A program made the translations under genes and the position numbers. A stretch of DNA of 40,511 bases from Candidatus Micrarchaeota archaeon. Its GTDB lineage: Archaea > Micrarchaeota > Micrarchaeia > Anstonellales > Bilamarchaeaceae. Shown piece after piece: positions 7,214 through 23,314 of the stretch. The notes below the pieces were generated by a model. It saw nothing but the letters and a program-made list of their open reading frames with translations. It was not told the DNA's origin and made no database searches. Numbering within the stretch: position 1 is the first letter of the stretch; each line of letters starts with the position of its first letter. The stretch spans positions 1-40,511 of the forward strand of contig JBGFRY010000030.1 of the NCBI GenBank assembly GCA_041694845.1, read 5' to 3'.

Positions 7214-7774
7214 TTATTTTAAGCCGAGATATTTAAGCAACTCATTCCTATAGTTTATACAATCAATTTTTTTATTTTTCTTTTTATTTTTCATTTCCCT
7301 TATTATTATATCGACACATTTTTCTTTATTTCTTCTACTTGTATCAAGTTCAACAACAGTAGTACGATAATTTTTCATAGCGTTTACAACACAATAATCT
7401 AACAATTCTGCAAGTATATTTTCAGCGATTTTCTTTTTATCATAACCTCTTCTTCTTAGCCTTTTAATTAAGGTATTTGGATTAGTCCGCAGTACTATAA
7501 CAAGATCAGCAGTGAGTGCAATCTCGCAAGCAAGATGACCTTCAATTATATAGCCTTTAGTAATCAACTCAAGTCCCAACTCTTTGAGTATTGCTTGCCT
7601 TAATTTTTTCAAATTAACTATTTTTTCTTTATCTTTGATTTCATAGATTTTATTTTTTTCTACTATTTTTTTTATGTCAATTAATCCATAACCAATTTTT
7701 TTTGCAAGCATCTTAGCAATAATTGTTTTTCCAGTTCCAGGTACTCCAGTTACAACAATTCGCAACACAGTCAC
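7214..7774 (-). CDS. P-loop nucleoside/adenylate kinase-like protein (Fap7/AK6-like)
   Basis: RIVVTGVPGTGKTIIAKMLA Walker A at the N-terminus, small size (186 aa), RLRRRGY lid-like segment. Confidence 0.6.
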   Translation of the reverse strand: MTVLRIVVTGVPGTGKTIIAKMLAKKIGYGLIDIKKIVEKNKIYEIKDKEKIVNLKKLRQAILKELGLELITKGYIIEGHLACEIALTADLVIVLRTNPNTLIKRLRRRGYDKKKIAENILAELLDYCVVNAMKNYRTTVVELDTSRRNKEKCVDIIIREMKNKKKNKKIDCINYRNELLKYLGLK

Positions 7775-7780
7775 AACCTT

Positions 7781-8116
7781 TCATAACCTTTTGCTAAGTG
7801 TATTTAGATACTCCTTTGTAAATTTTAAAACTCCCTCCCCTTTTTTAGTCAGAACATAATACTTTCTGCGTTCAATAGTTTTTTGTTTTCCTTTGATTAT
7901 CCCTTCATCTTCTAGTTTATACAAAACAACATATAACATAATTCTGTTTGGTCTGAAGAAAAATTCCTCTTCTAATTGTTTATCAAGTGTATATGCGTAA
8001 ACTTCTTTTTTCTCTTTTATTAGCGATAGTATATACATCCAAATATTCCCATAACTAAGCAGATGTTTAAGCCTTTTTGTTGGTCTTGTATCCATTATAT
8101 TATTCAATCGCGTCAT
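7781..8116 (-). CDS. PadR-family winged-helix transcriptional regulator
   Basis: YILSLIKEKKEVYAYTLDKQLEE...LYVVLYKLEDEGIIKGK...RKYYVLTKKGEGVL is the PadR pattern. It is transcribed divergently from the membrane-protein operon. Confidence 0.8.
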   Translation of the reverse strand: MTRLNNIMDTRPTKRLKHLLSYGNIWMYILSLIKEKKEVYAYTLDKQLEEEFFFRPNRIMLYVVLYKLEDEGIIKGKQKTIERRKYYVLTKKGEGVLKFTKEYLNTLSKRL

Positions 8117-8179
8117 GATAAACTCCCTAGTAGTAATAATTTTATCAACATATATAAATTTTACATTTATAGTATAAGT
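8117..8179. promoter_or_regulatory. Divergent promoter region between padR-like gene and paralog operon
   Basis: 63-nt A/T-rich spacer with tatataaatttt about 25-30 nt upstream of ATG 8180. Confidence 0.45.
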
Positions 8180-9427
8180 ATGCTGATACGCTTTGTAGCA
8201 ATCTTCTTTTTCGTTACTACGATGATGCTTTCAGTTTCTTTTGCTGTTGATGAGTTTAATATAGTCCAATCAGGCCTTTTTTGGATAGTTCTCCCTGCAA
8301 CTGCCATAACAGTTATCGTGATTATATCGCTAGCTTCTATGCTTAGTCATGCATTTAATATGCCACAGCTTGAAGCATGGGCAAAGATAGAGTTTAGAGA
8401 ATTTATAATTGGCGTAATTCTTTCTGTGATCGTATTATCAATATTCTTGACCCCAGATCTTATAAGCATTCTCACAGGAACACCAAATTTTGTTACTTCA
8501 TCTATAAATACATTAACTGTATTTCGGGATAATTATCTTCTTGTTGCTTATACATCAACTATATACGCATCTCATGAGCTTACTCTTTTAACAGGTTATA
8601 GATATATCTATCCAATTAGTTTTCTATACTTTTCTCACACCGATGTCACCGCACCATTCACAGGTGTTGGTACGCTTCTTTTATTAGTTTCACATGCAGC
8701 AGCAGGGCTTTCAACTGCCATAATGGTATATAACTCAACTATCGTTCTTTTAGAATTCTTTCTCGTAGCGTCAGTATTGCTCCTTCCATTTGCCCTCTCA
8801 TTACGTTTAATCCCATTTAGCCGCAGGCTTGGCACAACAATGATCGCACTTTGTGTTGGTGCATACATCTTTCTCCCATTTTCGGTTTTCCTTGTATCAC
8901 AATTTCATACCCAGATTAATTTAGTAGATCTTGATAAAATGATAGAACTTAGTTCAAGTGAGCTTAATGCTATCCATCTTACTATTCCAATTGGATTCGG
9001 CGATCTTTGCAAAAATGATGCATTTAAGTTATTTACATCATTGCCAGGCGAGATCTGGGGGATAATATCCGGGATTTCATATTGCATACCAAGCTGTGCT
9101 GGAACAGGTCCTGGCTATGCAGCATGTTACACTGCGTGTTTTGCCAGTGTTTGGAGTTATACAGTCTATCATGCCTACCCATTTGCAAATGACATTGTGC
9201 AATTAACATATGGCACGTCTTTTTATTTAGCGAACAAGTTAAGTGGTATAGATGCAGGTATAGTATACAATATTATACATGAATTTCTTAAAGGTGTAAA
9301 TAGTATAGTTCTGTTAAGTTACATTAACGTTCTTGTAATAGGGATCATAACATATGTTGGAATAAGAAGTGTATCAACTGCATTAGGTGGCGAATATATG
9401 CTACCAGCAATTCAGAAGTTGATTTGA
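8180..9427 (+). CDS. Paralog 1 of 6: polytopic membrane protein, uncharacterised family
   Basis: Signal-like N-terminus MLIRFVAIFFFVTTMMLSVSFA. Family motifs AFNMPQLEAWAKIEF, LPFALSLRLIPFSRRLGTTMIA and C-terminal IRSVSTALGGEYMLPAIQKLI. Cys-rich loop YCIPSCAGTGPGYAACYTAC. Start moved to ATG 8180 because the ORF from 8063 overlaps padR. Confidence 0.8.
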   Translation: MLIRFVAIFFFVTTMMLSVSFAVDEFNIVQSGLFWIVLPATAITVIVIISLASMLSHAFNMPQLEAWAKIEFREFIIGVILSVIVLSIFLTPDLISILTGTPNFVTSSINTLTVFRDNYLLVAYTSTIYASHELTLLTGYRYIYPISFLYFSHTDVTAPFTGVGTLLLLVSHAAAGLSTAIMVYNSTIVLLEFFLVASVLLLPFALSLRLIPFSRRLGTTMIALCVGAYIFLPFSVFLVSQFHTQINLVDLDKMIELSSSELNAIHLTIPIGFGDLCKNDAFKLFTSLPGEIWGIISGISYCIPSCAGTGPGYAACYTACFASVWSYTVYHAYPFANDIVQLTYGTSFYLANKLSGIDAGIVYNIIHEFLKGVNSIVLLSYINVLVIGIITYVGIRSVSTALGGEYMLPAIQKLI

Positions 9428-10419
9428 TGAAAAGTAAACTGCAATATTTCTTCATTTTACTTTTGCTGATATCACTTTCATTTGCAGAACAGCTTAGCTG
9501 CAGCAGTAATGCTACGCATTATATTTTGAATTTCGAGGATAATCGCCTCCTGCTTCCAGGCATTCTAGCATTTACTGTATTTATGATCATACTTGCATAC
9601 ATGATAGGAAAAACTACGAATAATCCGCAGTTCCAGATTTTTTATAAGGATGAGATGTTCCATCTTTTCTTTTCACTTGCTATATTAGTTGTTTTTTCAG
9701 GAATCTTATTTTTCTCATGTGAAGCTATGCGATTATTCTTTGATTTCTATGTTCAAAAAGCCGGAATTATATCACCTCATTATACCTCTGGTAAATCCCT
9801 TCTTGACATCGCTTATGATATGATTTTTTATATGAGTTCTGACGCATCTTATTTTTCAGGACACCTAATCAAAAAAACAATAGATGCAACAATGTCGTCT
9901 ACGTGGGGTTATTCGTTATATTTTCCATTTTATGGCGGACTTACAATTGCTACAAATGCCTACAAAAGAACCCATGCTTTGCAATATGATAGCCTAAACA
10001 CATTTTTTATCTTGCCAGCTCTTATTAGCATTAACGTACAAAAATTACTCCTTAAATTTGTCATTGATTATGGTGAAGTTTATCTCCTACCACTTGGCTT
10101 TTTCTTAAGGTTATTTCCAAGTATGCGCCAGATGGGGAATATTGTCATCGCATTTGCACTTGGTCTTTTTACAATTCTCCCTTTCATGTATGTTTTAAAT
10201 GGGTTGATGTATGATGTTGTTACGCCACCACCACCACAAGGATGTGATCAATCAATGAAAAATATAATAGACGATCATGTAGTTGGTGATTGTGGTAAGA
10301 ATAGCTTTTACACTGCTGCAAGATTACTCCCCCAGGCATTTTTCCTTCCTAACTTAACACTTGCCATATTTATAACCTATCTCGCTGCAATAAATAAGGC
10401 ATTAAGGGTGTTGGGATGA
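9427..10419 (+). CDS. Paralog 2 of 6: polytopic membrane protein, uncharacterised family
   Basis: Signal-like MKSKLQYFFILLLLISLSFA. Motifs NNPQFQIFYKDEMF and LPLGFFLRLFPSMRQMGNIVIA. PPPP-Q-G-C...C loop. The C-terminal tail is shorter than in the others. The ATG overlaps the P1 stop (TGATG). Confidence 0.8.
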   Translation: MKSKLQYFFILLLLISLSFAEQLSCSSNATHYILNFEDNRLLLPGILAFTVFMIILAYMIGKTTNNPQFQIFYKDEMFHLFFSLAILVVFSGILFFSCEAMRLFFDFYVQKAGIISPHYTSGKSLLDIAYDMIFYMSSDASYFSGHLIKKTIDATMSSTWGYSLYFPFYGGLTIATNAYKRTHALQYDSLNTFFILPALISINVQKLLLKFVIDYGEVYLLPLGFFLRLFPSMRQMGNIVIAFALGLFTILPFMYVLNGLMYDVVTPPPPQGCDQSMKNIIDDHVVGDCGKNSFYTAARLLPQAFFLPNLTLAIFITYLAAINKALRVLG

Positions 10420-12350
10420 AAAGTTTTAAATTTTCAGTTTTCAGTTTTGTTCTAATCATTTTCGTGCTACTAGCTTTACTTTCACTCTCATACACGCAAG
10501 ATGTAACAGAAATATTGCAAAAAACAGAGCAGACATCAGCATTCGAACTTGTTAAAGACTGGCGCGTTCTTTCACTTTTGGCTGTAATGTTTTCTGTGAT
10601 AGTTGTAGCCATTGTTTACATGGTCGGTGTTGGATTTGATATGCCTGATCTAAAAGGTTTTGCAGCTGTTGAATTAAACCAAACAATCGTTACCGCAATC
10701 ATTGTTGCAGTACTTTTGTCAACTATAACTTTTCTTGATTTAATTACTGCAATGTTTGTGAATGAGAGTGATATACTAGATCCTAATAATCCAGACACTA
10801 TTCTAAATTGCGGACCAACTGATTTTTGTGCGAAAAAAATATCCCAGGCATATTTCAAAGACCTGTTAGATACTATAAATAATGCAGCCCGTGGAAATCT
10901 TATCTCTGCATTTAATTATGCAGAAGAGGCTGCAAGCAGAACTGGCTGGTCGTGCAACACATTTATTCTACCGATCCCATGTCTCTGGGGGTCTTTTTCC
11001 TATGCAGATGGTGCGCATCTTATCCTTCAAACAGAGCGGTTGAATATTGTATTAGAAACATATGCAACTATTCTTTCTTCTATCTATGCTCAACAATTTT
11101 TCATTGAGAAAATTTCATTTACTATTGCACCTGCACTTCTTTTGATTGGTATAGTTGCTAGGACACTCTTTTTTACACGAAAGCTTGGCGGCCTTTTAAT
11201 GGCAATAGGAATAGGAGTAATGTTTGTTTTTCCGACTATGTACGTGTTTAATTGGTTTACTATGAACGTAATGCTTTTTGGCGATGCTGTAGTCGGCGTA
11301 TATGGTGCAGTTTCCTGTCCAGAGGAATGCAAAACTGCACCTCTTGCATTTGAGAGTTCTTCGCCAATTACACCACCTAAAATGCAATTCACTCAGTATT
11401 TTTCAGTTAATGAATTATCTAAACGTCTCGAGGAATCAGGAGCAGCTCAAACAAATGACAAAGCAGCTACCTTGGCATATAACTTATCCACAGGCAAAAT
11501 CGAATCTGTCACCATAAGTGGTAATATAAAAATTTATTCATGCGAGTGGATGGCAAATCATACTGCGTTTGCGCAATATGGAGGATACTGTCCACAAGAG
11601 TGTAGAATTATTCCATATCCTGCTCTTCCAAAATGCCTTAATTATACTACGCAATTTGCCTGTGCAGCGTTGGATGGTAGTTGCAAATATATTCCATACG
11701 TAGATCTTATAGCACATCCTGATAATTATAATACACCAAAAAAATGCCCAAAAAAATGCCGTACTATTCCTCCACTTTCAACAAATTGCGATTATATAGA
11801 ATCATATAAAACTCTGAAAAAGAAAGAGTATAACTGTATCTACTCTCCAATTGAATGTCGTGTTGCATTAAAAGATAATCAAAACTGGAGACTAGAAGAC
11901 TGCCTTTCTACTGATAAATATAAAGTCATGATGCCAAATGGAACTCAAGTAGAGACATTCACAAAGGCAACATTAAAGTCATGTGTTGCTGTTAAAGATG
12001 ATCCTTATTCTTCATGCGCATATCAGATAGCAGATGAGGAGACATTAGAGAAAGAATGTGATGGTTGCGTTTTTGTTCCTGTTCAGTACACATTTGACCC
12101 ACCAATATATCTAAACTGTTTGGACGGATGCTCTCAACAGGATACGCCATTGATTTCTCCTGCTGATGTTACAAAGCAATCAAACAAAGGAATGGTTGGT
12201 AGAGATGACATAAAGAATGTAGCATCAGTCCTATTACCTAGTTTTCTTCTTCCACTTCTTAATATTCTTGTTACTGTTATGTTCATAAAAACATTTTCTC
12301 CACTTTTTGGAGGCGATATTGAAATTCCTGGTCTGCAAAAGGTGTTATGA
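10416..12350 (+). CDS. Paralog 3 of 6: polytopic membrane protein with roughly 300-aa Cys-rich insert
   Basis: Motifs GFDMPDLKGFAAVEL, IGIVARTLFFTRKLGGLLMA and C-terminal IKTFSPLFGGDIEIPGLQKVL. The loop between the last two TM segments is expanded (about nt 11304-12224) and holds about 20 of the protein's roughly 24 Cys (hand count). ATGA overlap with the P2 stop. Confidence 0.85.
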   Translation: MKSFKFSVFSFVLIIFVLLALLSLSYTQDVTEILQKTEQTSAFELVKDWRVLSLLAVMFSVIVVAIVYMVGVGFDMPDLKGFAAVELNQTIVTAIIVAVLLSTITFLDLITAMFVNESDILDPNNPDTILNCGPTDFCAKKISQAYFKDLLDTINNAARGNLISAFNYAEEAASRTGWSCNTFILPIPCLWGSFSYADGAHLILQTERLNIVLETYATILSSIYAQQFFIEKISFTIAPALLLIGIVARTLFFTRKLGGLLMAIGIGVMFVFPTMYVFNWFTMNVMLFGDAVVGVYGAVSCPEECKTAPLAFESSSPITPPKMQFTQYFSVNELSKRLEESGAAQTNDKAATLAYNLSTGKIESVTISGNIKIYSCEWMANHTAFAQYGGYCPQECRIIPYPALPKCLNYTTQFACAALDGSCKYIPYVDLIAHPDNYNTPKKCPKKCRTIPPLSTNCDYIESYKTLKKKEYNCIYSPIECRVALKDNQNWRLEDCLSTDKYKVMMPNGTQVETFTKATLKSCVAVKDDPYSSCAYQIADEETLEKECDGCVFVPVQYTFDPPIYLNCLDGCSQQDTPLISPADVTKQSNKGMVGRDDIKNVASVLLPSFLLPLLNILVTVMFIKTFSPLFGGDIEIPGLQKVL

Positions 12351-12353
12351 TTT

Positions 12354-13376
12354 ATGATAAAACTCCGAACGCTGATAGTTGCAATATTGATTTCTTTCCT
12401 GTTTCTCACTAATATAATATTTGCAGGTTGGTTAGAGCTTACTGCACAGGCGCTATTACTCTCTTTTATGATTCTTGCTTTAATGTATATGATCGCTATT
12501 GGCTTTACAATAAACGAGCTCAAATTTCTTGCCCAAGAGGAGTTTTGGCAACTCATAGTTACAGTTGTTATGGTCGCATTGCTTTACAGTACACACACGT
12601 TCTTTGATTCTTTATTTGCTTCACCAGAATTTGGAGCAAATGGTGGTGTGCAAAAAGCATCCATTAAGATCTCGCAAGATATAATATCAAAATTAGATTT
12701 GATATTCGAGAATGTAAAAGATCAAGCTGATGATGCTGGCAGAGAATCTTCAATAAGTGTTTTCTGTTCATTTATGGGTACATCTGTTTACGTTGCAGCA
12801 TGTGGGTCATATCGAGCAATAACCCCAATTTACTCTACTTCCTATCAAGTTCTCTCAATCGCATTAATGGAAGAAAAATCGCTAGAGATACTTCTTACTA
12901 TCGGTTCAAAATACGCATTTACAATATTTCTCCCATTAGGTATATTTTTGCGTACTTTCAAATTTACTAGAGGAGCTGGCGGATTTTTGATAGCACTTAG
13001 CATTGCATTTTATTTTGTCCTTCCTCTTACTGTATTTATTTTTGATGAATTAGCAAAAACAGCAAAGAGTAATATAGAAAATGTACCTCCTGGTTCAATC
13101 ATTAAGCCAATTAATCTAGAGGTTCAAAATCTTAATAAGATTAATGAATGCGATATGTACAACCCTGATCGTGCTGATGAGAATAGCAATGTCGATTCTG
13201 TTGTCAGTGCATTAAATGATATGAACAGTAAATCTATGGGATATCTATATGTTATGCTTGTAAATGCTAGTTTGGGAGTTATAATCCCGATAGGCGCTAT
13301 GATTGCTTCGATAAGAGCATTTTCTGCTCTTGCTGGTGCAGAGGTGGATGTAAGCGCACTTTCTAGAATTGCGTAA
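12354..13376 (+). CDS. Paralog 4 of 6: polytopic membrane protein, uncharacterised family
   Basis: Motifs GFTINELKFLAQEEF, LPLGIFLRTFKFTRGAGGFLIA and C-terminal IRAFSALAGAEVDVSALSRIA. Starts 3 nt after the P3 stop. Confidence 0.85.
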   Translation: MIKLRTLIVAILISFLFLTNIIFAGWLELTAQALLLSFMILALMYMIAIGFTINELKFLAQEEFWQLIVTVVMVALLYSTHTFFDSLFASPEFGANGGVQKASIKISQDIISKLDLIFENVKDQADDAGRESSISVFCSFMGTSVYVAACGSYRAITPIYSTSYQVLSIALMEEKSLEILLTIGSKYAFTIFLPLGIFLRTFKFTRGAGGFLIALSIAFYFVLPLTVFIFDELAKTAKSNIENVPPGSIIKPINLEVQNLNKINECDMYNPDRADENSNVDSVVSALNDMNSKSMGYLYVMLVNASLGVIIPIGAMIASIRAFSALAGAEVDVSALSRIA

Positions 13377-13390
13377 TTGGTTGGTTAAAT

Positions 13391-14407
13391 ATGGTCGCAG
13401 GGCAATTGTTATGTGATGGTGACGGTGCTCTTGGATTTTCGCAAATAATTACTGATAGTATCATTCCGCTTACTGCATTTGCAGGAGTTATCACTTCTAT
13501 CATTGTAGCGCTCTCTTATATGTTTGGAGAAATGATCCAAAACCAAAAAATTATCGTATGGGCAAAAACAGAATTCTTTCAAATATTCATTTCACTTGCA
13601 TCAGCTTTGTTGATTGTTGGTCTTATAAACTCTTTTTGCACATTCAATTTTTCAGATATAGTTGCACTTACGCAGGATAAAACAATAATATCACCTACAT
13701 TAGCTCACCAGAATATTTATGATGCTGCAAAAACCTATTTGGAGGATGTAGCTAAATACTCACATGATGTATTAAGAGGACAAAGGGCGATGCTCGCAAG
13801 ATTCAACATGCTAGAAGGAAGAGCACGCTGGTATTGTCTTAGCTATACTTTTTGTCTCTTTAATCCATCAGGCTACCATACCGCACCTTATGCTGGTGTT
13901 GCACTTGCTTCTGCTGCATTCACTGTTTCTTTCAATACTTCCCTGTTTTCTTACCTCTCTTCTCTAAATTATTTGTTTATATTAAATTATACATACAGTG
14001 GGATAGCACTACTATTCATTCCATTTGGGATTTTCCTTCGTTCAATGCCATATATGCGCTCTTTTGGGGGTTTAATCTTAGCTGTTGTATTTTCATTTTT
14101 ATTTATCTACCCAAGTCTATTGGCAATATTTAATATTATAGGAAGCGTTATAACACAATCAAGTTGTCCTACTGATGAAGGAATTATAGAAGCATTAGGT
14201 AAGAATGTTATGCAGGAAGAAGGAAACAATGAAGAATCTACAGTTCCTTGCAATTATGCAAATACAATAATGGACAGTAGCGGCGCATTTATTTTCGCAG
14301 TGTTTCTTCCAACAATTGCATTAGTTGCCACTATCGCTAGCATTCGTTATGTAGCTCGTTTACTAGGTGAAGATATCGATCTTAGTAGGGTAGTTCAAAT
14401 GATGTGA
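13391..14407 (+). CDS. Paralog 5 of 6: polytopic membrane protein, uncharacterised family
   Basis: Motifs MIQNQKIIVWAKTEF, IPFGIFLRSMPYMRSFGGLILA and C-terminal IRYVARLLGEDIDLSRVVQMM. Confidence 0.85.
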   Translation: MVAGQLLCDGDGALGFSQIITDSIIPLTAFAGVITSIIVALSYMFGEMIQNQKIIVWAKTEFFQIFISLASALLIVGLINSFCTFNFSDIVALTQDKTIISPTLAHQNIYDAAKTYLEDVAKYSHDVLRGQRAMLARFNMLEGRARWYCLSYTFCLFNPSGYHTAPYAGVALASAAFTVSFNTSLFSYLSSLNYLFILNYTYSGIALLFIPFGIFLRSMPYMRSFGGLILAVVFSFLFIYPSLLAIFNIIGSVITQSSCPTDEGIIEALGKNVMQEEGNNEESTVPCNYANTIMDSSGAFIFAVFLPTIALVATIASIRYVARLLGEDIDLSRVVQMM

Positions 14408-14413
14408 TATGAT

Positions 14414-15442
14414 GTGGTTGTCATGAGTGAAATATCAATTTTCCTTGAAGATCTTCAAAATAAAGGGCTTTGGTTCAGCCTTCCACTCATAGCCACGTTT
14501 ATCGTCATCCTCATAAGAGGATTGCTTGTTGGAATTGGCCATGCATTTAATATGCAAGAACTCGAAAGAAATTCAAAAGCTGAAATCATTCAGGCTATTG
14601 CAACATTTTTGATTCTTGTATTTATTGTTGAAATAATTCTTGGAGTAGAATCATATATCATAAAAGATGTGCTTGGTGCGGCTAGCTATATAAAATGTGG
14701 TGCAAATCAAATTCCAGTTGTTGATCCAAATACTGAAAATACTCTTAATCTCATGGAAGTCATAAAATGCCGCGTTAATGAAAAGGCATATATGCTTGCA
14801 GACATGCAGGAAAAAGTATATTCAAATGCATACTGGCCTTTTTGGAAACTTTCTATTGTAGTTTCTGTTGCTGGAGTACCAGCATTCCAGGGAAGTTGGA
14901 TTGATACGTGGTTTAGCGAAGCAGAGCAGATGCGTTTACTTAATATAGTAATTACTACTTTGTTAATTGGTCTTAATGGAATACTAGTTTTCATAAATTA
15001 TGTCAAGAGTAACATGCTGCCAGTGTTCTTGCCAGTTGGCATTGTTTTGCGTGCCTTTAATTTTACAAGAGGAGTTGGCGCATTTTTCATTTCTATTGCT
15101 TTAGGGCTTTATCTAATCTTTCCATTAATTTTCGTTCTAACTGACCCAGGATTCGTTAAGGTCAGTAGCTATGAGGTGTTTCCGCAGCAGATAAAACCAA
15201 CTAGCTGTTACCCAGTTTTTTCAGGAGTTGTATCTGCAGTAACAGCTGCTCAACAGGATTCTGCAGTAGGCTCAGCATCAATCATTCAAAAAACAGTTAG
15301 CGATCTTCAAAGTATTTACATGTTATTACTTCTGCATCCGTTTGTTGTTCTTGCAATTACTTTAATATTTGTGAGATATCTGATGTACTTATTTGGTGGC
15401 GAGCCACAGGATATCATGCGTTATGTTGCGAGGGTGATTTGA
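14414..15442 (+). CDS. Paralog 6 of 6: polytopic membrane protein, uncharacterised family
   Basis: Motifs AFNMQELERNSKAEI, LPVGIVLRAFNFTRGVGAFFIS and C-terminal VRYLMYLFGGEPQDIMRYVARVI. GTG start at 14414, or in-frame ATG at 14423. Confidence 0.85.
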   Translation: MVVMSEISIFLEDLQNKGLWFSLPLIATFIVILIRGLLVGIGHAFNMQELERNSKAEIIQAIATFLILVFIVEIILGVESYIIKDVLGAASYIKCGANQIPVVDPNTENTLNLMEVIKCRVNEKAYMLADMQEKVYSNAYWPFWKLSIVVSVAGVPAFQGSWIDTWFSEAEQMRLLNIVITTLLIGLNGILVFINYVKSNMLPVFLPVGIVLRAFNFTRGVGAFFISIALGLYLIFPLIFVLTDPGFVKVSSYEVFPQQIKPTSCYPVFSGVVSAVTAAQQDSAVGSASIIQKTVSDLQSIYMLLLLHPFVVLAITLIFVRYLMYLFGGEPQDIMRYVARVI

Positions 15443-18400
15443 TGATAAGAAGGAATAAAAATAAACACTATCTATTAACATTTGTTTTTATTGCCATTAT
15501 GATTATTGTCTTTATTAGTATTTTTGCCACTGCAGGTTGCACTATTAAGAAAAATACAAGTTTTGGTTGCTGTGATAAAAAATACGCAGCTCAGAACGGA
15601 GAATGCAAATATATTGACAGTAATATGGATCAATACAAAAAGGATCTTGGTCTTGAATCAGGAGAGGTTATTCAAACCAATAACTGTGATATTAAAAAAG
15701 GCTATTGCAATGTTTCAATTAACAAGATTACTCAAGCTAGTCCAGATTCTATAGAAATTCCAATCTGTTCTCAACCAGAGATTACTGATTGCATTCAGTC
15801 AAATTGCAATGCAATGGTTTGTGGTCCATTTAAGTTTACTCCTTCACTTCCGTCATCAGGATTTATAGCTATTGAATCAGGTTCAAAAGGTTATTCTCCA
15901 GAGATGCTAACAGGTCTAATGGGTTCAACATGTAAATTCGTTCCAATAGATGAAAATTTAAAAAATGTTTTTAAGAATACCCGCAACTCGTTCGTGAATA
16001 CATTTAGGGTTGGTTTCGGCCCTAGTTTTGAAAGCTACCAGCGTGGAAGTCTTATCTATCCTCATACAGATAAATTTTGTGGTATTAACCCAGTAGGTAC
16101 AATGGACAGATTTGAAAATTATCTCATCACTCTTGATAGTGCATCTGTTCTTAATGGAAAGAGCATTGATTATGCAGAACAGCATGGCTTGAAGATTTTT
16201 AATCCTGTTAAATATTTCAATGATCCTGGGATTTGCATTAATGATACTCTTATTGAGCCCTTCAACACAACTAATTACGGATATTCTGTTAGTGGTGTGC
16301 AACCTGCTTATACGAATTTTATGAATTCCTATAAATTTACTTATTACAACAAACAAGTTGGTATTCTTAAAGAAGGTGGTTTTGTTTCATTAGATAGTTT
16401 GAGCCCTATTAATCTCTATACTTACTCTCAGATTGACAGGGCGTTCTATGCAAAGGCTCTTCCTTTCATCTATCGAGGCGATTATGATATCGGAAATGTG
16501 AAAATGCCATTTGAATGTAACTTAGAAGCAACAGAGTGTAAATCAGGAACATGTGCAACAAAGGATTATTCAAGAGAAGTATGTATTGATAAGGATACAG
16601 GAGAGGCAGTATTCTGCGATTGTATCACATGGTCTGACAACAAAGGTGATGGATTATTGGGCGCTGGTAATGCTGTTCTTTGCATGCCAAGATGGTGGTA
16701 TGGAGACTTTTTGATGAGCGATCTAACACCATTAGATGAGGAGTCCTCTATAAATTATGAAAAAATCATGGATACCTCTTATATGGCATATCCGCTAACA
16801 ATATCTACAAATATAGAAACTAGGTTAGCAGAATCTCATATGAACGAACTAATATTTAGAAATATAGAAACTAAGTCAGTAGGATATAATATGGACGAAC
16901 TTGTTCTAAATAGAGATAATTGGAACGTTGGCGGCTTGGATTCACTATTTCCTGCTGCAATAGTTTTCTTTGGCTCAATGGAAGGTGATGACTACAAAAA
17001 CGTTCGTGAAAACCACCAAGAAGAAATAGGTTTTAGCCTTCTTCTAAAAGATCAATTTGAGAATACTGCACTAGTTAAAAATTGTCAGATGAAAGAAGGG
17101 ATAGATTATATTGTTTATAATTTTACATCGTATGATCAGGCGGATTCTTTTGGGCATGTGCCGTATGGTTACTATAATTATGAAGATATTTATTATGAAG
17201 ATAATTATTATAAAGAGGATTATAGATATTCGCCAAATTATATAAGCATACTCTCAACAGGGAGATGCAAACTTGAAAAAGGCTCGCATGAAGAGATGCC
17301 AAAACTTAGGAGATATGGATGGTGTGAGCCATGCAGTTATGCAACTATAGCACTTCAAGTTGTTAAAACAACAACACCGAGTTATTTGCCAGGAGCTATA
17401 ATACCTCTTCTTCCACCATCTGTTTCTAGTTCAAAAACACAGGCATCTGCTGATGCATACCAAGGCCTTGATGGCTGGTGCGATCCTTCCTCTTATTGTA
17501 AATCGTTATGTAGTATAGGATGCAAGAAATGGGATTATGGTTCTTGCGATGAATATTACGACCAATCACTCACTGACCCAATAATATTTGGAAGTTCTGG
17601 AACTTTATGGCATCCTGCGACAGGAATAAAATGTGGTGATGCATATCCATGGCCAACAACAAATCCAGAGATAACATATCTGCAAACACAGCTTACTGAT
17701 CTACTCTCTCGCGGAGTTCTGCCTGTGCTTGATCTTTCTGATGATGAAATATGGAAAGCAGTTCAAGTAAAAAACATCTTCGGGAGTAAAATAGGTGAAT
17801 ATAGTGATTATAACATCAAATATCTATTAGGATTAAATAAAGGACCAATCATTGTTGTTATTAAATCATTCGATAGCCAAATTTCTGATCATTCATCTAT
17901 TGATGCACTTATTAAATATAGAAGCGAGCAGGTTAAATATTACTGCTCAAAATGCCTTGTTGCTGTTCATGTTTCTAATGCAAATACAGAAAACGATCTT
18001 AAAACTCTTGAATCGCTTTTTAAACTTATACCTAACCATAGTAGTTGCTATGATTTTAAAGATATTCCTGTATTCTGCAACAAAGATTTAGTTAATGCAA
18101 TTGATATAATTACGTTCAATGTTAATCTAAAAGATTACAGCGATAACACCATATGCACTGCAACAGATGTTCCTTATTACTCTTACATGCCAATAGTTAC
18201 TAACATTACGCAATTTGGAAGAGATGTTTTATATCTCTTCCAAAAACCAACTCTTATTCAACACTTCAATGCAACAGGTTTCTGCGGTAATGATGAAAAA
18301 AAGACGCAATCAGCGCTTTCTTATATGTTTACCAACCAGCTTCATTTTGCAAAAGCAGGTATAACTGGTATGATTATAACAAATCCGGATTACAAAACAT

Positions 18401-19038
18401 ATTCTAATCCTTTGCAGGCTAGTGATTATAGCACTCTTAATATACCAGACAGTTGTGCACTTGAGAAAGCATCGCACTTTATTTTAGAAGGGAAGCAGGC
18501 ATATCTCTATCAAAAACAATATACAATGCCGCAGGATAAAGTGCTATGCATGAAAAAAAATGATATCGAAAAAATAATAGATCCTTCAGTTAATTTAAAA
18601 TGCGCAAATGGAGCAGAATGCACTCTTCCAGTAGGTGCAACTAATAAAGCAGATTATAAATGCCAACAAAACAACATCCCTGAGCCCTGTAAGCAATGTG
18701 CTCTTGATACGCGACAACTTGAATGTAGGATAACCCAGTTAGACGGCAGTAAATTAACTAATATCTATAATATTACTGACTTCAATGACGCATACCAGCA
18801 ATTTATTGGAAGCATGCCTTATGGTGAGCAGTGCTGCCTTCAAGGTAGTACTGGGTTGAATTACACATATATAAAAAATACAATAACGCCAAAAGCAAGT
18901 GCACCTTTAATGTATTCAAAAAAAGGTTATGAGAATGAAGATTGTGGTCAGATGGATACTTCTATGTTTGATACATTATGTGGGATGCCGATGCTTCCTC
19001 AAGTAAGCACTAATAAAATAGAATGCAAAATAAAATAA
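15442..19038 (+). CDS. Giant Cys-rich exported protein, predicted lipoprotein (about 1,198 aa)
   Basis: N-terminal TM/signal ends in the lipobox-like FATAGC. About 49 Cys by hand count and many N-x-S/T sequons. No domain recognised by eye. The ATG overlaps the P6 stop (TGATG), so it is co-operonic. Confidence 0.85.
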   Translation: MIRRNKNKHYLLTFVFIAIMIIVFISIFATAGCTIKKNTSFGCCDKKYAAQNGECKYIDSNMDQYKKDLGLESGEVIQTNNCDIKKGYCNVSINKITQASPDSIEIPICSQPEITDCIQSNCNAMVCGPFKFTPSLPSSGFIAIESGSKGYSPEMLTGLMGSTCKFVPIDENLKNVFKNTRNSFVNTFRVGFGPSFESYQRGSLIYPHTDKFCGINPVGTMDRFENYLITLDSASVLNGKSIDYAEQHGLKIFNPVKYFNDPGICINDTLIEPFNTTNYGYSVSGVQPAYTNFMNSYKFTYYNKQVGILKEGGFVSLDSLSPINLYTYSQIDRAFYAKALPFIYRGDYDIGNVKMPFECNLEATECKSGTCATKDYSREVCIDKDTGEAVFCDCITWSDNKGDGLLGAGNAVLCMPRWWYGDFLMSDLTPLDEESSINYEKIMDTSYMAYPLTISTNIETRLAESHMNELIFRNIETKSVGYNMDELVLNRDNWNVGGLDSLFPAAIVFFGSMEGDDYKNVRENHQEEIGFSLLLKDQFENTALVKNCQMKEGIDYIVYNFTSYDQADSFGHVPYGYYNYEDIYYEDNYYKEDYRYSPNYISILSTGRCKLEKGSHEEMPKLRRYGWCEPCSYATIALQVVKTTTPSYLPGAIIPLLPPSVSSSKTQASADAYQGLDGWCDPSSYCKSLCSIGCKKWDYGSCDEYYDQSLTDPIIFGSSGTLWHPATGIKCGDAYPWPTTNPEITYLQTQLTDLLSRGVLPVLDLSDDEIWKAVQVKNIFGSKIGEYSDYNIKYLLGLNKGPIIVVIKSFDSQISDHSSIDALIKYRSEQVKYYCSKCLVAVHVSNANTENDLKTLESLFKLIPNHSSCYDFKDIPVFCNKDLVNAIDIITFNVNLKDYSDNTICTATDVPYYSYMPIVTNITQFGRDVLYLFQKPTLIQHFNATGFCGNDEKKTQSALSYMFTNQLHFAKAGITGMIITNPDYKTYSNPLQASDYSTLNIPDSCALEKASHFILEGKQAYLYQKQYTMPQDKVLCMKKNDIEKIIDPSVNLKCANGAECTLPVGATNKADYKCQQNNIPEPCKQCALDTRQLECRITQLDGSKLTNIYNITDFNDAYQQFIGSMPYGEQCCLQGSTGLNYTYIKNTITPKASAPLMYSKKGYENEDCGQMDTSMFDTLCGMPMLPQVSTNKIECKIK

Positions 19039-19124
19039 ATATAAATAAATAATGTAAATTAATATATAACTTATATAAATGAGTATATAGATAAGTTAAA
19101 TAATCATAGAGCGATTTGATTCAC

Positions 19125-22100
19125 ATGATTCGGTCAGGTTTAATTAGTTCTAGTATTTGTGTATTCTTTCTCTTTATATTTACTTCAACCGGTTTCTCGC
19201 AGATGCCAGTGATGTGCATACAAGGGCAGCATTTTTACACTTATTTTTCAACAATGCAAAATGAATCACAAACTATTATAAGTAGTCGTCTTGTTTATGA
19301 GAATATTGCAGTCAAGCCACCATTACAACCTGTTATATTTGCTCCATTATTTATATATGTATATAACGACACATGGGATGGTAAACTAATTCTTACCTAT
19401 ACTAATAATGATGGCTATGCAACTATAAATATCTCAAAGCATGTGCCTGAGAAAAGTTGTTACAATGTAAGAATTATCTACTGTAATGCTGATGAAATAA
19501 CCATCTCTTGTCTTGAAAATTTCGGTGTAAAAAAACCTATATTAGATTGGTTGAAAGCACAAGCGCAGATTGAAAAGATAAGTACTCTTATGTTCTATCC
19601 AATTTCAATTCTTAGTTTTAGTAGTGATACTTTTGACATGAGTTTATTTAAGAATTCGCCTTCAGGTCCTCTGTCGTTTTTCACTCCTAAGTGGTACCGA
19701 TATTATACAAGCCAAATGCCAGATACCTATTCTCATTCATCAACTATTACATTAAGCTCTGCATTAGATGAGATTCAGATGTGTGGTGGTGGCGCAACAG
19801 TTGCTCCTGCAGCAACAGTATCATTTTGCATACCTTTAATATTGATATTCGCGCTTATGGCAGGAGGGCTTTTCCTCTCTGGAAAAAACCCACTTATGGG
19901 ATTTGATTTTGCAACACCGAGAATTGGTAAATATTACGGAAGATACAGTGCTCGTGGAAGAGGATGGTTTTTTGATTTAAGCTCAATAAGAACTTTTGCA
20001 TCAGGAATTCAATCTGCAAAATCAGATGTAGTGAATCTTAAATCAGAAGGATATATTGGGATGATTACAAGAGATATTAAATCTATGTTCAGTGGTTTAA
20101 CCACATCTTCTGAAAAAGTTAAAGATAGTGCTAAGACACCAGGAAGTGCTTCAAGCGTCAGCCAAGCTGCTGTAAAACTTGGTCTTGGTACTGGAAGAAG
20201 AGGAATGGCTTTGTTCGGGTTGGAACGTGTTGCAGGTGGTGGCGGGATAGTTGCAAAAGGCAAGGCAGTATCATATATTTCGAGTAGATGGGGAGAGTAT
20301 AAACAAGAAAAAGGAAAAGATGCTATAGTTTATGGCCACAGTCACACTGTTTCAACAATTTTAGGAGCTATCATAGGATATTTTGATCTCCCTGGTATAA
20401 TTAATTGGATAAATGTTTTTGCAGGAACTCAAAAGGACTGGAAGCAGATTTTTGGGAACCTGGCAAAACCAAGTAAGTCGAATGCGCGAGAAACACTTAA
20501 AAAAACTGGACCAAACGGTGAAGGCATTCAAATTAGCTATGAATATGAGAGTATTAACTATGAATATGCGAATCAAACAACAAAAAACAAATATAAGAAA
20601 ACTTTTACTTTACAGCAACTTCATGATGGAAAATTTATAATAACTGTAGATGAGAAAAAGATTACAGTTAACACAAGCGATCAAGATGATGTTGGAAAAG
20701 CTGCAAAAGAATTAGGTATAGAACCACAACGGATCATTGAGATGAAAACAGAGTTCGAGAAGCAGAGAACTGCAGCTGCTTTTGTTGTTTTTGAAGCAGC
20801 ACATGCAAGAAATATGAAAGTAGGCAGTACTATTAGCTCATTAGCTTCAGAGATGGCTAAGAAGATAGAAGATAGAATTAAAGAATATGAAGAAAGCAAA
20901 GAAACTGCAACTGATCTTAATGATGTAATAAAAAAAATCGCCATGCTCCAAAAAGAAAAAGAGAACTATCAAATAATTGCAGCATATTATGCAGGGCATG
21001 TTGATAATGATAGATACAATGATGCAGTAAAAGATTTATATTCAAGTAAAAAAATGTCAGATGAGATTGGATTGCAAATAGATATTTTTAACATAACAAA
21101 GAAAGAAGTGGAATATACACAACGGTTTGCAAATACTTCATTTATTATCTTTAATATTTTGCAACAACAAAAACAGGTTTCATCATCACTTAATGGAGAA
21201 ATCAGTGCTGCAACTGATTCAGTTAGTAAACTTGGAGACTATATATTGAAAGCATCAAATCAATCAAAAGATGTTTATGATGAAACATTTTCTAAAAAAA
21301 TTGAATTGGCAATTGCTGATGCAAATCTTAAAACTGCACGTGCAGAAGCAGCAGGTGCTTTATATTATACTCTTCCCCCAGATACTAAGCTAGAGGATTT
21401 TCAGAAATTGAAATTGCCAGAACTAGATATAAATGTCCCTGCAGAAATGGATAAAAACTACTTTGTTCATAAGAAAGCCGAGATCTATAAAGATCTTACA
21501 AAACTATACACAAGTGTTTCTCAGTATGCTCTTTATATCGAAAATGAAAATGTAGGACCGCGAGTCACTCCCAAACTTGCAGATGACATAGCAAATATAG
21601 GGAATTATGCTGTGAAATCTGCAAAAACTATTAGTGATGCCTCTTTAATGTTGGAGACTCTATTAATCGCTTCATCTGCTGATCACTATCTAACAGATTA
21701 TTCTACAATAAATGGCCTTATTGTCCTTTACGCAACTGATAAAACTGATAATCAACGAAATAATCGCATTCAATATATGAATATATATCTTGAGGTTAAC
21801 AATAACCACAACGCAGCGCAGCGAAAAGCGCTTGGAGGGATGATGGAGACAGAAGATGGTGTTAATAAAGTGATGAGCTGGTTAGAGAGCCGTAGTAGTG
21901 TACCTAAATATAAAACTATCGTAGAAGGAATAAAGGATGGAACAATTATAAGAGTACGAGAAAGAGATATGGATCTTAATAATCCAGCTATCAAAAGTGC
22001 AGTTGCAGACGTACTAGTAAAGCACTTACCAGATCAAGATTTAGATCGCTTTCTTGAGTTAAAAATAGATTACAAAAAAGGATTTGAAGAATTATTTGCA

Positions 22101-22346
22101 GTACAGTATAAGGCTCCGGCAGAGAGTGATAGTGATGAAAATAAGCAGAAATATGAAGATCATTTAATAGAGATTTATAAGAAAATGGAGGACCCTATAG
22201 TAAAAATTGTTACTGACAATATCAAAGTATATAATGATAGGATATCCATAGCTGACGCTACTGAAATAGTTAAAAGATTACAGAACCGCGGTCTTAAACA
22301 AACTGCCGATAAATTTAAAACTATTTATTTGTCAGATAAAAAATAA
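19125..22346 (+). CDS. Large bitopic membrane protein: exported N-domain, one TM, roughly 800-aa helical cytoplasmic region
   Basis: Signal-like MIRSGLISSSICVFFLFIFTSTGFSQ. Beta-rich N-domain of about 200 aa. TM VSFCIPLILIFALMAGGLFLSG (about nt 19812-19880). Then a Gly/Arg-rich linker and a long Lys/Glu/Ala-rich predicted helical region. An own A/T-rich promoter-like spacer lies at 19039-19115. Alternative TTG start at 19116. Confidence 0.8.
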   Translation: MIRSGLISSSICVFFLFIFTSTGFSQMPVMCIQGQHFYTYFSTMQNESQTIISSRLVYENIAVKPPLQPVIFAPLFIYVYNDTWDGKLILTYTNNDGYATINISKHVPEKSCYNVRIIYCNADEITISCLENFGVKKPILDWLKAQAQIEKISTLMFYPISILSFSSDTFDMSLFKNSPSGPLSFFTPKWYRYYTSQMPDTYSHSSTITLSSALDEIQMCGGGATVAPAATVSFCIPLILIFALMAGGLFLSGKNPLMGFDFATPRIGKYYGRYSARGRGWFFDLSSIRTFASGIQSAKSDVVNLKSEGYIGMITRDIKSMFSGLTTSSEKVKDSAKTPGSASSVSQAAVKLGLGTGRRGMALFGLERVAGGGGIVAKGKAVSYISSRWGEYKQEKGKDAIVYGHSHTVSTILGAIIGYFDLPGIINWINVFAGTQKDWKQIFGNLAKPSKSNARETLKKTGPNGEGIQISYEYESINYEYANQTTKNKYKKTFTLQQLHDGKFIITVDEKKITVNTSDQDDVGKAAKELGIEPQRIIEMKTEFEKQRTAAAFVVFEAAHARNMKVGSTISSLASEMAKKIEDRIKEYEESKETATDLNDVIKKIAMLQKEKENYQIIAAYYAGHVDNDRYNDAVKDLYSSKKMSDEIGLQIDIFNITKKEVEYTQRFANTSFIIFNILQQQKQVSSSLNGEISAATDSVSKLGDYILKASNQSKDVYDETFSKKIELAIADANLKTARAEAAGALYYTLPPDTKLEDFQKLKLPELDINVPAEMDKNYFVHKKAEIYKDLTKLYTSVSQYALYIENENVGPRVTPKLADDIANIGNYAVKSAKTISDASLMLETLLIASSADHYLTDYSTINGLIVLYATDKTDNQRNNRIQYMNIYLEVNNNHNAAQRKALGGMMETEDGVNKVMSWLESRSSVPKYKTIVEGIKDGTIIRVRERDMDLNNPAIKSAVADVLVKHLPDQDLDRFLELKIDYKKGFEELFAVQYKAPAESDSDENKQKYEDHLIEIYKKMEDPIVKIVTDNIKVYNDRISIADATEIVKRLQNRGLKQTADKFKTIYLSDKK

Positions 22347-22361
22347 TTAAAAGTTTTTCTT

Positions 22362-22700
22362 ATGGGATTTTTAAGCGATATTTTAAAGACAATGGTTGGA
22401 GGAGGTATAGAGGTAAAAAAAGGACCTAAGCAGAAATGCCCTAATTGCAAGGAAGATATTACTTTGGATATGAAGCGCTGTCCTAAATGTGGGGTTCATA
22501 TAAGCTCAATGTTTAGAATGAAATGCCCAAAATGTAAAGAACTGAACGAGCTTGATGCAAAAAAATGCAAGAAGTGTGATTATAATTTTGAAGCAGAGCT
22601 AAAACGTGCTGAAGAAAGTGTTTATATATGCCAAATATGTCAGTATAAAAGTAAAGTGTTTCTTACTTCCTGTCCTGCATGCAATACGAGATTTATATAG
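22362..22700 (+). CDS. Triple zinc-ribbon protein
   Basis: Six CxxC pairs in 112 aa: CPNC/CPKC, CPKC/CKKC, CQIC/CPAC. Confidence 0.7.
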   Translation: MGFLSDILKTMVGGGIEVKKGPKQKCPNCKEDITLDMKRCPKCGVHISSMFRMKCPKCKELNELDAKKCKKCDYNFEAELKRAEESVYICQICQYKSKVFLTSCPACNTRFI

Positions 22701-22738: not shown

Positions 22739-23314
22739 GTGTATGAGAAATTTAAAACCGATACAAACCAAGAAGAAAAAAAAGAAAAGAAAGATGTAGA
22801 AAAGAAAAAATTTAATATTTTGCTTGAAGAGGACAATGTTGAGATAAAGCTTCTTGAAGAAGCTGATGTTGAAGAAGTAGTAAAAGTCATGCGAAAATGC
22901 TCGTTTGACGTTACAGATAAAGAAGTTTCTCTGATTACTGTATATGGGATGTCTTTTGGTGCTTTTGTCAACCGTATACTTATTGGTGTTGGGCTAGGCT
23001 GGCCTGCAAATTTTGATGAAAATCAAAAAAAGATTATGGGTGGAGAAGCTAACGCTATATATATGGAAGATGCAGCAATTTTGATCTCTTACGAAGGAAG
23101 AGGAATTAGAAGAATTCTTCTAAAAGAAAGAGAAAATGAAGCTAAAAATCGTAATTTTCTTTACTCTGTGGCTTATCTCTCAGCTGACTTACCAAAAAGC
23201 GGGGTTGACGACTACATAAAAGAAGCTGGAAGTCAAGTTGAGAAACTCTATCTATCAGAGAGTTATGAATTTATGAAAACTGATAAAGGCATTTTAGTAA
23301 TGAAAAAATTATAA
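22739..23314 (+). CDS. GNAT-family N-acetyltransferase-like protein with Lys/Glu-rich N-terminal tail
   Basis: The ILISYEGRGIRRILLKERENEAKNRNF block resembles the GNAT acetyl-CoA motif A (R/Q-x-x-G-x-G/A). The surrounding beta/alpha pattern is compatible. GTG start. Confidence 0.55.
   Translation: MYEKFKTDTNQEEKKEKKDVEKKKFNILLEEDNVEIKLLEEADVEEVVKVMRKCSFDVTDKEVSLITVYGMSFGAFVNRILIGVGLGWPANFDENQKKIMGGEANAIYMEDAAILISYEGRGIRRILLKERENEAKNRNFLYSVAYLSADLPKSGVDDYIKEAGSQVEKLYLSESYEFMKTDKGILVMKKL

Follow-up and report, generated by a model that had tools for sequence, protein, structure and literature searches.

A conserved operon of six paralogous membrane proteins with two giant proteins in Micrarchaeota: a strong candidate for an undescribed cell-envelope machine

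To our knowledge, hardly anything has been reported on the molecules from which Micrarchaeota and other DPANN archaea, which are host-dependent, build their structures for contact and exchange. In the Rickettsiales, bacteria that are likewise host-dependent and have reduced genomes, the type IV secretion system (T4SS) includes tandem arrays of VirB6 paralogs (rvhB6a-e), diverged, partly very large and lying side by side, within a complete system that has the VirB4, VirB11 and VirD4 ATPases. We studied a 40,511-nt contig of a Candidatus Micrarchaeota archaeon (JBGFRY010000030.1, assembly GCA_041694845.1; the whole stretch is referred to as the window) and in it the block at positions 7,781-22,700, where an operon of six paralogous membrane proteins, P1 to P6, is accompanied by two giant proteins, G1 and G2. 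This block is a strong candidate for an undescribed cell-envelope machine. The neighbouring, diverged membrane-protein paralogs recall the rvhB6a-e arrays of the host-dependent Rickettsiales; homology of the P family to bacterial VirB6 was not detectable with Foldseek, a profile search of PDB or Pfam.

The closest described archaeal proteins are CedA and CedE, VirB6 homologues that form the membrane parts of a crenarchaeal DNA-exchange system and are needed for DNA transfer (PMC11868833, PMC9905601); CedE has five transmembrane (TM) helices (PMC11868833). Like CedA, CedE and TedA of the Ced and Ted systems, the P proteins are chromosomally encoded, polytopic archaeal membrane proteins; like CedE, they have about five TM helices. 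Unlike these crenarchaeal proteins, they belong to Micrarchaeota, are predicted to carry long extracellular helical stalks and Cys-rich inserts, and come as six fixed paralogs per operon, with two operons in at least one metagenome-assembled genome (MAG), where the Ced and Ted systems have one or two genes. Neither a CedB/VirB4 ATPase nor a CedA1/TedC pilin is encoded nearby, and two giant envelope proteins accompany the paralogs. A chromosomal T4SS of Patescibacteria, reported as essential for epibiotic growth in one cultured strain, has recognisable VirB4, VirB3, VirB6 and VirB2 homologues (PMC12102498). The block resembles it in being a conserved, chromosomal envelope system of ultra-small epibiotic prokaryotes, but contains no VirB4, VirB3, VirB6 or VirB2 homologue above threshold. 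Cryo-electron tomography (cryo-ET) of the micrarchaeon ARM-1 revealed a barrel-like docking structure, about 21 nm wide, in the envelope where host nanotubes arrive; its genetic basis is unknown (PMC11329633). The operon comes from the same phylum as this envelope-spanning object at the host contact and could encode something of that kind, which makes it a candidate through a purely circumstantial link. A full-text literature search found no description of the operon, and all of its components are "hypothetical protein" in public records. The core of the block has the following features:

8117-8179: A/T-rich divergent spacer of 63 nt with TATA-like runs, where the P operon and the leftward gene string that starts with PadR (see below) presumably have their promoters
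8180-9427, plus strand: P1, 415 aa, polytopic membrane protein, first of the six paralogs (identical to P0002)
9427-10419, plus strand: P2, 330 aa (identical to P0001)
10416-12350, plus strand: P3, 644 aa, core plus a Cys-rich ectodomain of about 300 aa
12354-13376, plus strand: P4, 340 aa, the paralog nearest to the family consensus
13391-14407, plus strand: P5, 338 aa
14414-15442, plus strand: P6, 342 aa from the GTG at 14414 or 339 aa from the ATG at 14423
15442-19038, plus strand: G1, 1198 aa, exported giant protein with a lipobox-like site, ATG at 15442
19039-19124: A/T-rich G1-G2 spacer with TATA-like boxes, 77 nt to the TTG or 86 nt to the ATG of G2
19116-22346, plus strand: G2, bitopic giant protein, 1076 aa from the TTG or 1073 aa from the ATG at 19125

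The original prediction, made from the window alone, had described a translationally coupled unit with six paralogs. All its open reading frames (ORFs) were present where it had placed them, and the junctions, read in the sequence, were as described: P1 and P2 overlap as TGATG (P2 ATG at 9427), P2 and P3 as ATGA, and P6 and G1 again as TGATG, whereas P3 and P4 are separated by 3 nt, P4 and P5 by 14 nt, and P5 and P6 by 6 nt to the GTG or 15 nt to the ATG. The G1-G2 spacer has the reported 77 nt when G2 is started at the TTG. A gap of 15 nt separates G2 from the zinc-ribbon gene that follows, and 63 nt separate P1 from the divergent PadR gene (see below). Database copies of P1 (415 aa), P2 (330 aa), P4 (340 aa) and G1 (1198 aa) agree with the ATG starts. 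The block spans about 14 kb with 8-9 genes, around 1-2% of a genome of about 1 Mb.

This arrangement recurs in relatives. With a P6 pattern we recovered 36 loci from species-representative genomes, titled Micrarchaeota, Micrarchaeia, Bilamarchaeaceae, "ainarchaeum" or uncultured archaeon; the named proteins recovered later were all from Micrarchaeota (NCBI phylum Microcaldota). In all 29 loci that were long enough the order was P1-P2-P3-P4-P5-P6 on one strand, and 7 loci at contig ends showed the expected partial series. G1 came next after P6 in 33 of the 36, its ATG overlapping or abutting the P6 stop in nearly all loci, and two contigs stop just past P6. Note that L014 (4088-14084), the sole locus without G1 after P6, has a 100-N scaffold gap and unrelated genes downstream; the exception is thus an assembly join, unless G1 has really been lost or relocated there. 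G2 always adjoins the six-gene series (hexad), with a side that varies: it is divergent upstream of P1 in 21 loci and downstream of G1 in the window and 4 loci. That G2 switched sides yet stayed adjacent argues for selection for linkage. The P proteins of the window (34.5% GC) are orthologous one to one, by position, to those of a relative of 61% GC (L002/L019), with 32-38% identity; for example, the best match of P2 was position 2 of L002 (38% identity, E 4e-71), and P5 aligned with position 5 of L002 at 36% identity (E 3e-74). Since this positional orthology spans 34-61% GC, the six-fold differentiation is ancient, and the recurrence of order and coupling in 29 of 29 loci with positional orthology places the arrangement far beyond chance. 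The envelope proteins of the block are 22-40% identical to their relatives. The proposed single unit therefore stands as a conserved functional unit of exported and membrane proteins, with coupling and order kept across 36 related genomes. The genes are not scattered among relatives, and no part was confidently assigned to an unrelated known pathway. Synteny across DPANN lineages had been named as a check: it was seen throughout the 36 loci, all labelled Micrarchaeota or close to it, and so far in Micrarchaeota only, not across DPANN.

The family itself is large. An exhaustive profile search of representative proteins clustered at 50% identity gave 2,920 P-family representatives at E<=1e-3 and 2,135 at E<=1e-10 (word-indexed searches found just 10, 2 and 2 matches), and the best 150 of the 2,920 resolve cleanly into six orthogroups. 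There is no Pfam model for the family; 86 members gave single Pfam matches only.

BLASTP alignments showed that P1-P6 are 21-31% identical to each other (E 1e-5 to 7e-16), and the alignment contains residues invariant in all six (E71, R209, R215, G218 and P233 in P1 numbering); they are true paralogs with one common architecture, in agreement with the original prediction. A hydropathy scan predicted five TM helices per protein, and the AlphaFold2 (AF2) model of P6 agrees. According to both, the chain opens with an N-terminal helix that is signal-like or amphipathic; TM1 and the conserved FNMxELExxAKxE loop, which is short, lead on to a 41-residue helix with TM2. Then come an ectodomain of about 80 residues, with long helices, two small beta hairpins and a conserved Cys pair, and after it a 50-residue helix ending in TM3, a conserved basic loop (LRxFxFTRxxG), TM4, a variable disordered loop, TM5 and a tail. 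The conserved C-terminal tail motif, GG(E/D)xxxxxLxRxI, is absent only from P2. The P6 model (predicted local distance difference test, pLDDT, 80.4; predicted template-modelling score, pTM, 0.74) is all-alpha apart from the two hairpins; its helices measure 34-50 residues, and residues 249-289 form the disordered loop. A topology with the N-terminus out and the C-terminus in is suggested by the positive-inside rule and by where the Cys-rich inserts lie: the Arg-rich LRxFxFTRxxG loop and the C-tail would be inside, whereas conserved Cys residues and giant Cys-rich inserts would be outside, and the three conserved motifs would thus face the cytoplasm.

P3 differs from the other paralogs by its ectodomain of about 300 aa with 24 Cys, located between the last two TM helices (alignment columns 330-640). 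Three CPxxC[KR] motifs (CPEECK, CPQECR and CPKKCR) occur at P3 residues ~300-470. The orthologs at position 3 are always long (650-1683 aa), and in some relatives (L042, L043) the insert reaches 1,300-1,700 aa. An exported DsbA-like Thioredoxin_4 protein is encoded in the same window at 30314-31084, and a Thioredoxin_3-domain protein with a long N-terminal region at 2550-3188; both fit an organism that makes many extracytoplasmic disulfides (49 Cys in G1, 24 in P3).

Searches with the P6 model by Foldseek gave no PDB match at E<=0.001 (best E 0.16, template-modelling score 0.26). Matches to BAR-domain and designed-helix structures were regarded as noise, and a likeness to TTYH proteins (5 TM helices plus an extracellular helical bundle) was dismissed at a probability of 0.01-0.02. 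Pfam and NCBIfam scans of all the block proteins left only PadR and the zinc ribbon above threshold. Neither scan detected an ATPase, pilin or S-layer family in the block, as the original prediction had noted.

A second operon of six paralogs, here called type B, was found beside the leucyl-tRNA synthetase gene (LeuS) in two loci, L040:2031-8595 and L044:7713-15499. These hexads have neither the giants nor the Cys-rich insert of P3. L044 and the type-A locus L012 are contigs of one MAG assembly (GCA_964434735.1) with matching GC, which thus holds 12 paralogs in two hexads. Hidden Markov models (HMMs) built for each of P1-P6 were scored on the 12 type-B proteins: the top score fell on the diagonal for 9 of the 12, two were off-diagonal, and the first protein of L040 was a tie between the P1 and P4 models. 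The P4 model scores high on all type-B proteins, P4 behaving as the generic family member. The two hexads are collinear, so that the gene order is older than their duplication, and this collinearity together with the HMM diagonal argues that each P position is non-interchangeable. Elsewhere in L040, at 13945-15010 on the minus strand, two tandem ORFs carry class-III (type IV pilin-like) signal sequences (MKAQSAIEYLTVYGW...); OGG, M24 peptidase and SMC genes separate them from the type-B hexad, about 5 kb away.

G1 begins with an N-terminal hydrophobic helix followed by a lipobox-like A-G-C (...FATAGC), whose G32 and C33 are invariant in 21 orthologs, a pattern that accords with the earlier description of G1 as a putative lipoprotein. 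Lipobox-like ends (AGC, SGC, IGC) are present in G1 orthologs, where they are invariant (15442-15560 in the window), and in some type-B paralogs (L040:5271-5340, L040:6405-6480, L044:15528-15600), and this pattern suggests lipoprotein-type anchoring in Micrarchaeota. Of the 49 Cys of G1, 33 are invariant across the 21 orthologs. The AF2 model, built with database entries identical to the locus translations, shows alternating strands and helices at ~740-1010 that resemble a TIM barrel, followed by a beta-rich C-terminal domain. All 30 PDB matches of G1 at E<=1e-3 by Foldseek were clan GH-A TIM-barrel glycosidases (GH5, GH53, GH164, GH10), with probability 1.00, E 7.5e-5 to 1e-3 and target-normalised template-modelling scores of 0.35-0.50, and glycosyl hydrolases also ranked first in a viral structure library. 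The sequence matched 0 Pfam families at E<=0.01 in 27 orthologs and 0 PDB sequences. G1 is therefore like clan GH-A in its predicted (beta/alpha)8 fold and unlike it in showing no sequence-level match and no conserved catalytic Glu pair (in GH-A, the acid/base after beta-4 and the nucleophile after beta-7), and in that the barrel is embedded in a Cys-rich lipobox protein of 1,200-1,900 aa. The conserved barrel residues include D764, D767, D888, D893 (N in the window) and K935. G1 is as likely to bind glycans, or to have a non-canonical activity, as to hydrolyse them.

In G2 a signal peptide and an ectodomain of about 200 aa precede a single TM helix, and the cytoplasmic region beyond it, about 800 aa long, is poorly conserved; its best-conserved stretch overall is the TM helix with a juxtamembrane motif (residues 233-283). 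An ATPase function was considered for G2 and rejected, as no conserved Walker A motif is present. Neither giant matched an S-layer domain in Pfam. The reported S-layer protein of Micrarchaeota matches PF05123 and has almost no sulfur-containing residues (bioRxiv 10.1101/2021.04.28.441871), unlike G1 with its 49 Cys.

The only recurrent similarity of the P family, sub-threshold throughout, is to CedA and CedE. When 86 members were compared with NCBIfam, CedE was matched by 9 (best E 1e-4) and CedA by 7 (best E 2.8e-5), and other families by at most 1 each. P4 of the window matched CedE over residues 156-238 (E 0.0034), and 5 of 10 P4 orthologs matched CedA at model positions ~90-205 of 259, always in the same register. 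The shared stretch of about 100 residues corresponds to the core formed by TM3, the cytoplasmic loop and TM4. Moreover, P proteins have, by hydropathy and the P6 model, the VirB6 characteristics of at least five TM helices and an extracytoplasmic domain. Common ancestry with VirB6/CedA is the best lead offered by these comparisons, not a finding.

From the above we tentatively propose that the block encodes a chromosomal multi-subunit envelope complex that would serve exchange with another cell, either as a trans-envelope conduit or as a docking portal. P1-P6 would be made in equal amounts from one translationally coupled mRNA and would assemble as a hetero-oligomeric membrane platform, probably with one copy of each and every position structurally distinct; fixed order, fixed identity and overlapping codons are as one would expect for subunits at distinct places of one equimolar assembly. 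The long TM helices would project outward as a helical stalk, to which P3 would contribute a disulfide-rich ectodomain. G1, made right after P6, would be lipid-anchored on the outer face, where its TIM barrel might bind or cut glycans, either those of the cell's own S-layer or those of a partner cell. G2 would touch the platform through its conserved TM/juxtamembrane segment and reach into the cytoplasm. As the P core is most like CedA/CedE, the platform would most likely be a conduit or docking portal, energised by something encoded outside the block. The original prediction had suggested attachment to, or exchange with, a host; the weak CedA/CedE similarity and the glycosidase-like fold of G1 are hints that the block might serve it.

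Several results weigh against a conduit or docking portal of VirB6/CedA descent. The CedA/CedE scores do not exceed 23 bits, as compared with curated cut-offs of 330-400, and in the detailed scan the matches were confined to the P4 orthogroup; ten type-B proteins scanned gave no CedA/CedE match, and no recurrent Pfam match, TrbL/VirB6 models included, appeared among the 86 members. A VirB6 chain (solved in R388 TrwI, PDB 7o3v) was absent among the 50 matches listed by Foldseek for the P6 model in PDB, and the P-family profile found 0 PDB sequences at E<=10. The 40-kb window showed no ATPase of the VirB4/CedB/HerA type, no coupling protein and no VirB2-like pilin, and none turned up in the Pfam-annotated called genes of loci L002, L040, L042, L043 and L044. 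The G1 model is poor overall (mean pLDDT 55), with values mostly of 70-89 over 740-1010 and 1020-1150; no conserved Glu was found in its strands or at positions conserved in at least 70% of the 21 orthologs within 735-1030, and the G1 of the window deviates from several barrel consensus residues. Finally, in a supplementary annotation table of the cultured Ca. Micrarchaeum harzensis the LeuS neighbourhood is without a hexad, and PadR and ScpB are not among the rows listed.

A complex for biogenesis or maintenance of the envelope, in which the P platform anchors or organises the S-layer and pseudo-periplasm with no role in cell contact and G1, as a structural protein in the wall of its own cell, remodels or binds glycans, is possible and nearly as likely as a conduit or docking portal. 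Such a role suits the housekeeping genes that surround the module and its apparently vertical inheritance in the phylum, the existence of another hexad that lacks giants, as for a basic membrane function, the glycosidase-like fold of G1, and a block that encodes no ATPase or pilin; in Micrarchaeota the S-layer is glycosylated and stands about 20 nm above the membrane (bioRxiv 10.1101/2021.04.28.441871). It leaves the recurrent CedA/CedE signal unexplained, however, and the proteins show no similarity to known S-layer, anchoring or glycosylation families, while the 49 Cys of G1 contrast with the nearly sulfur-free S-layer protein mentioned above. Nutrient uptake, with G1 as an active surface glycosidase that frees oligosaccharides or host compounds and the P hetero-oligomer as their importer, seems unlikely. 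The GH5-, GH53-, GH164- and GH10-like barrel of G1, its tight coupling to polytopic membrane proteins and a reduced genome with probable dependence on outside metabolites would suit it, but the barrel conserves only Asp residues and Lys935, with no Glu acid/base or nucleophile found, the 27 G1 orthologs have no CAZy-type Pfam match, the P proteins match no transporter family, and no energy-coupling module is present; six fixed, distinct subunits would also be atypical for an importer. Returning to the conduit or docking portal, a more specific version of it, in our opinion improbable, is that a hetero-hexameric ring of six VirB6/CedA-derived subunits, with no dedicated ATPase and capped by G1 as a glycan-recognising lipoprotein, would dock host nanotubes or cytoplasmic bridges and admit lipids, nucleic acids or metabolites, and would be the barrel of ARM-1 (PMC11329633).

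The genetics of the block point to a membrane machine of fixed stoichiometry: six non-interchangeable, ordered paralogs, a whole operon duplicated once and a giant surface protein hard-wired to it. If the CedA/VirB6 link is true, DPANN archaea would have a channel derived from type IV secretion, parallel to the essential chromosomal T4SS of Patescibacteria; if the link fails, the system would be categorically new. The block is a concrete, phylum-wide gene set and a defined target for cryo-ET, proteomics and structure prediction.

The core is flanked by the following genes:

6730-7197, minus strand: ScpB
7214-7774, minus strand: AAA_18 kinase
7781-8116, minus strand: PadR winged-helix regulator, first of the minus-strand string PadR, AAA_18 kinase, ScpB
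22362-22700, plus strand: double zinc-ribbon protein, 112 aa, 12 Cys (Pfam DZR, 1.5e-9)
22739-23314, plus strand: cytoplasmic protein of 191 aa, weakly GNAT-like

The locus is an ordinary archaeal chromosome and the block is chromosomal. Upstream of the block lie adenylosuccinate synthetase (AdSS), ScpB and the AAA_18 kinase, and downstream a membrane Lon-type protease, Elp3, Sua5, a DsbA-like thioredoxin and the A-type ATP synthase operon. It could be argued that the block genes are mere neighbours held together by slow rearrangement, with no common function beyond the six paralogs, and in fact the wider region is also syntenic (AdSS, ScpB, kinase, PadR, zinc ribbon and GNAT-like gene), so that adjacency alone is weak evidence for the outer genes. 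For the core, however, relatives preserve the overlaps of stop and start codons between P1 and G1, and G2 relocated across the hexad but still adjoins it, which makes this explanation very improbable. Even less probable, practically negligible, is that an integrated conjugative or viral element with T4SS-like cargo sits in the contig by chance. The weak CedA/CedE (VirB6-like) similarity is its sole support; against it, the GC content of the block (0.35-0.37) matches that of the window (0.345), the 40-kb window yielded no tRNA gene or Rfam family, and its ORFs scanned with Pfam/NCBIfam gave neither an integrase nor a transposase, AdSS, ScpB and the AAA_18 kinase are syntenic with the block in the 61% GC relative (L002), a search of 2.9 million viral contigs found no relative, and the divergence of orthologs keeps pace with genome divergence. 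An integrated mobile element was rejected for want of an integrase or transposase, a tRNA target, a compositional break or a patchy distribution; the restriction to such an element that the original prediction had named as a way to fail was thus not observed. Both the mobile-element and the chance-neighbour explanations are effectively excluded for the core formed by P1-P6, G1 and G2.

PadR is a genuine member of its family (PF03551, E 7.5e-13, 48.7 bits with a cut-off of 27 bits), with orthologs 52-56% identical in 7 related loci, and it is divergent from P1 across the 63-nt spacer, as originally described. Its proposed role as a dedicated local repressor is weakly supported, however: most relatives have G2 interposed between PadR and the promoter of P1, with PadR as part of a string on the minus strand, G2-PadR-AAA_18 kinase-ScpB (in L002, PadR follows G2 with a 4-nt gap), and the palindromic operator that had been sought in 8117-8179 is not visible within the spacer, where the lone inverted pair has one arm inside the PadR coding region. 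PadR adjoins the block in 7 loci and the window, about 8 of about 14 judgeable loci, and its link to the operon is loose. Relatives with G2 upstream have a conserved box, TTTAAAT-N9-10-AAGAAAT(C/G)TAG, before P1, which is absent from the spacer 8117-8179 of the window. In its full form, A(A/C)GTTTAAAT-N9-10-AAGAAAT(C/G)TAG(C/G)C, the box (also written TTTAAAT...AAGAAATCTAG) stands directly 5' of the P1 ATG in 11 of 21 spacers (L016, L017, L019, L020, L024, L026-L028, L030, L038 and L039), the 61% GC genome included. Its sequence resembles that of a TATA box with a conserved element close to the start of transcription, and the box may be an operator.

The G1-G2 spacer is probably the promoter of G2 itself, given its TATA-like boxes and the fact that G2 is a separate divergent unit in 21 relatives. 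A 23-nt imperfect inverted repeat (78% complementary, 4-nt loop) is located in this spacer at 19058-19107; it could be a terminator, a regulatory hairpin or a chance occurrence in A/T-rich DNA. A scan for bacterial promoters and terminators, a method that is not applicable to archaea, gave the same counts as shuffled controls.

The zinc-ribbon and 191-aa genes follow the block in 19 loci and are missing beside several relatives. Their products are 49-62% and 55-61% identical to their orthologs, respectively, as compared with 22-40% for the envelope proteins. The zinc-ribbon protein that had been proposed is a double zinc ribbon. The GNAT-like label of the 191-aa protein retains a weak match to Acetyltransf_1 (PF00583, E 0.0078), also seen in 10 of 19 orthologs, but the score of 16.9 bits is below the cut-off of 20.7, and a profile of the protein gave 0 PDB sequence matches. 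Both genes may be simply conserved neighbours whose linkage to the block is uncertain.

Further downstream, two ORFs of about 280 aa each, at 25139-25987 (plus strand) and 27574-28410 (minus strand), had no Pfam match. Directly downstream of the block, a 572-aa ORF at 23359-25077 (minus strand) encodes a Lon_C (S16) protease domain that lacks an AAA module and is preceded by a signal-like helix at the N-terminus and followed by a TM helix at the C-terminus; its product appears to be an exported or membrane Lon-like protease.

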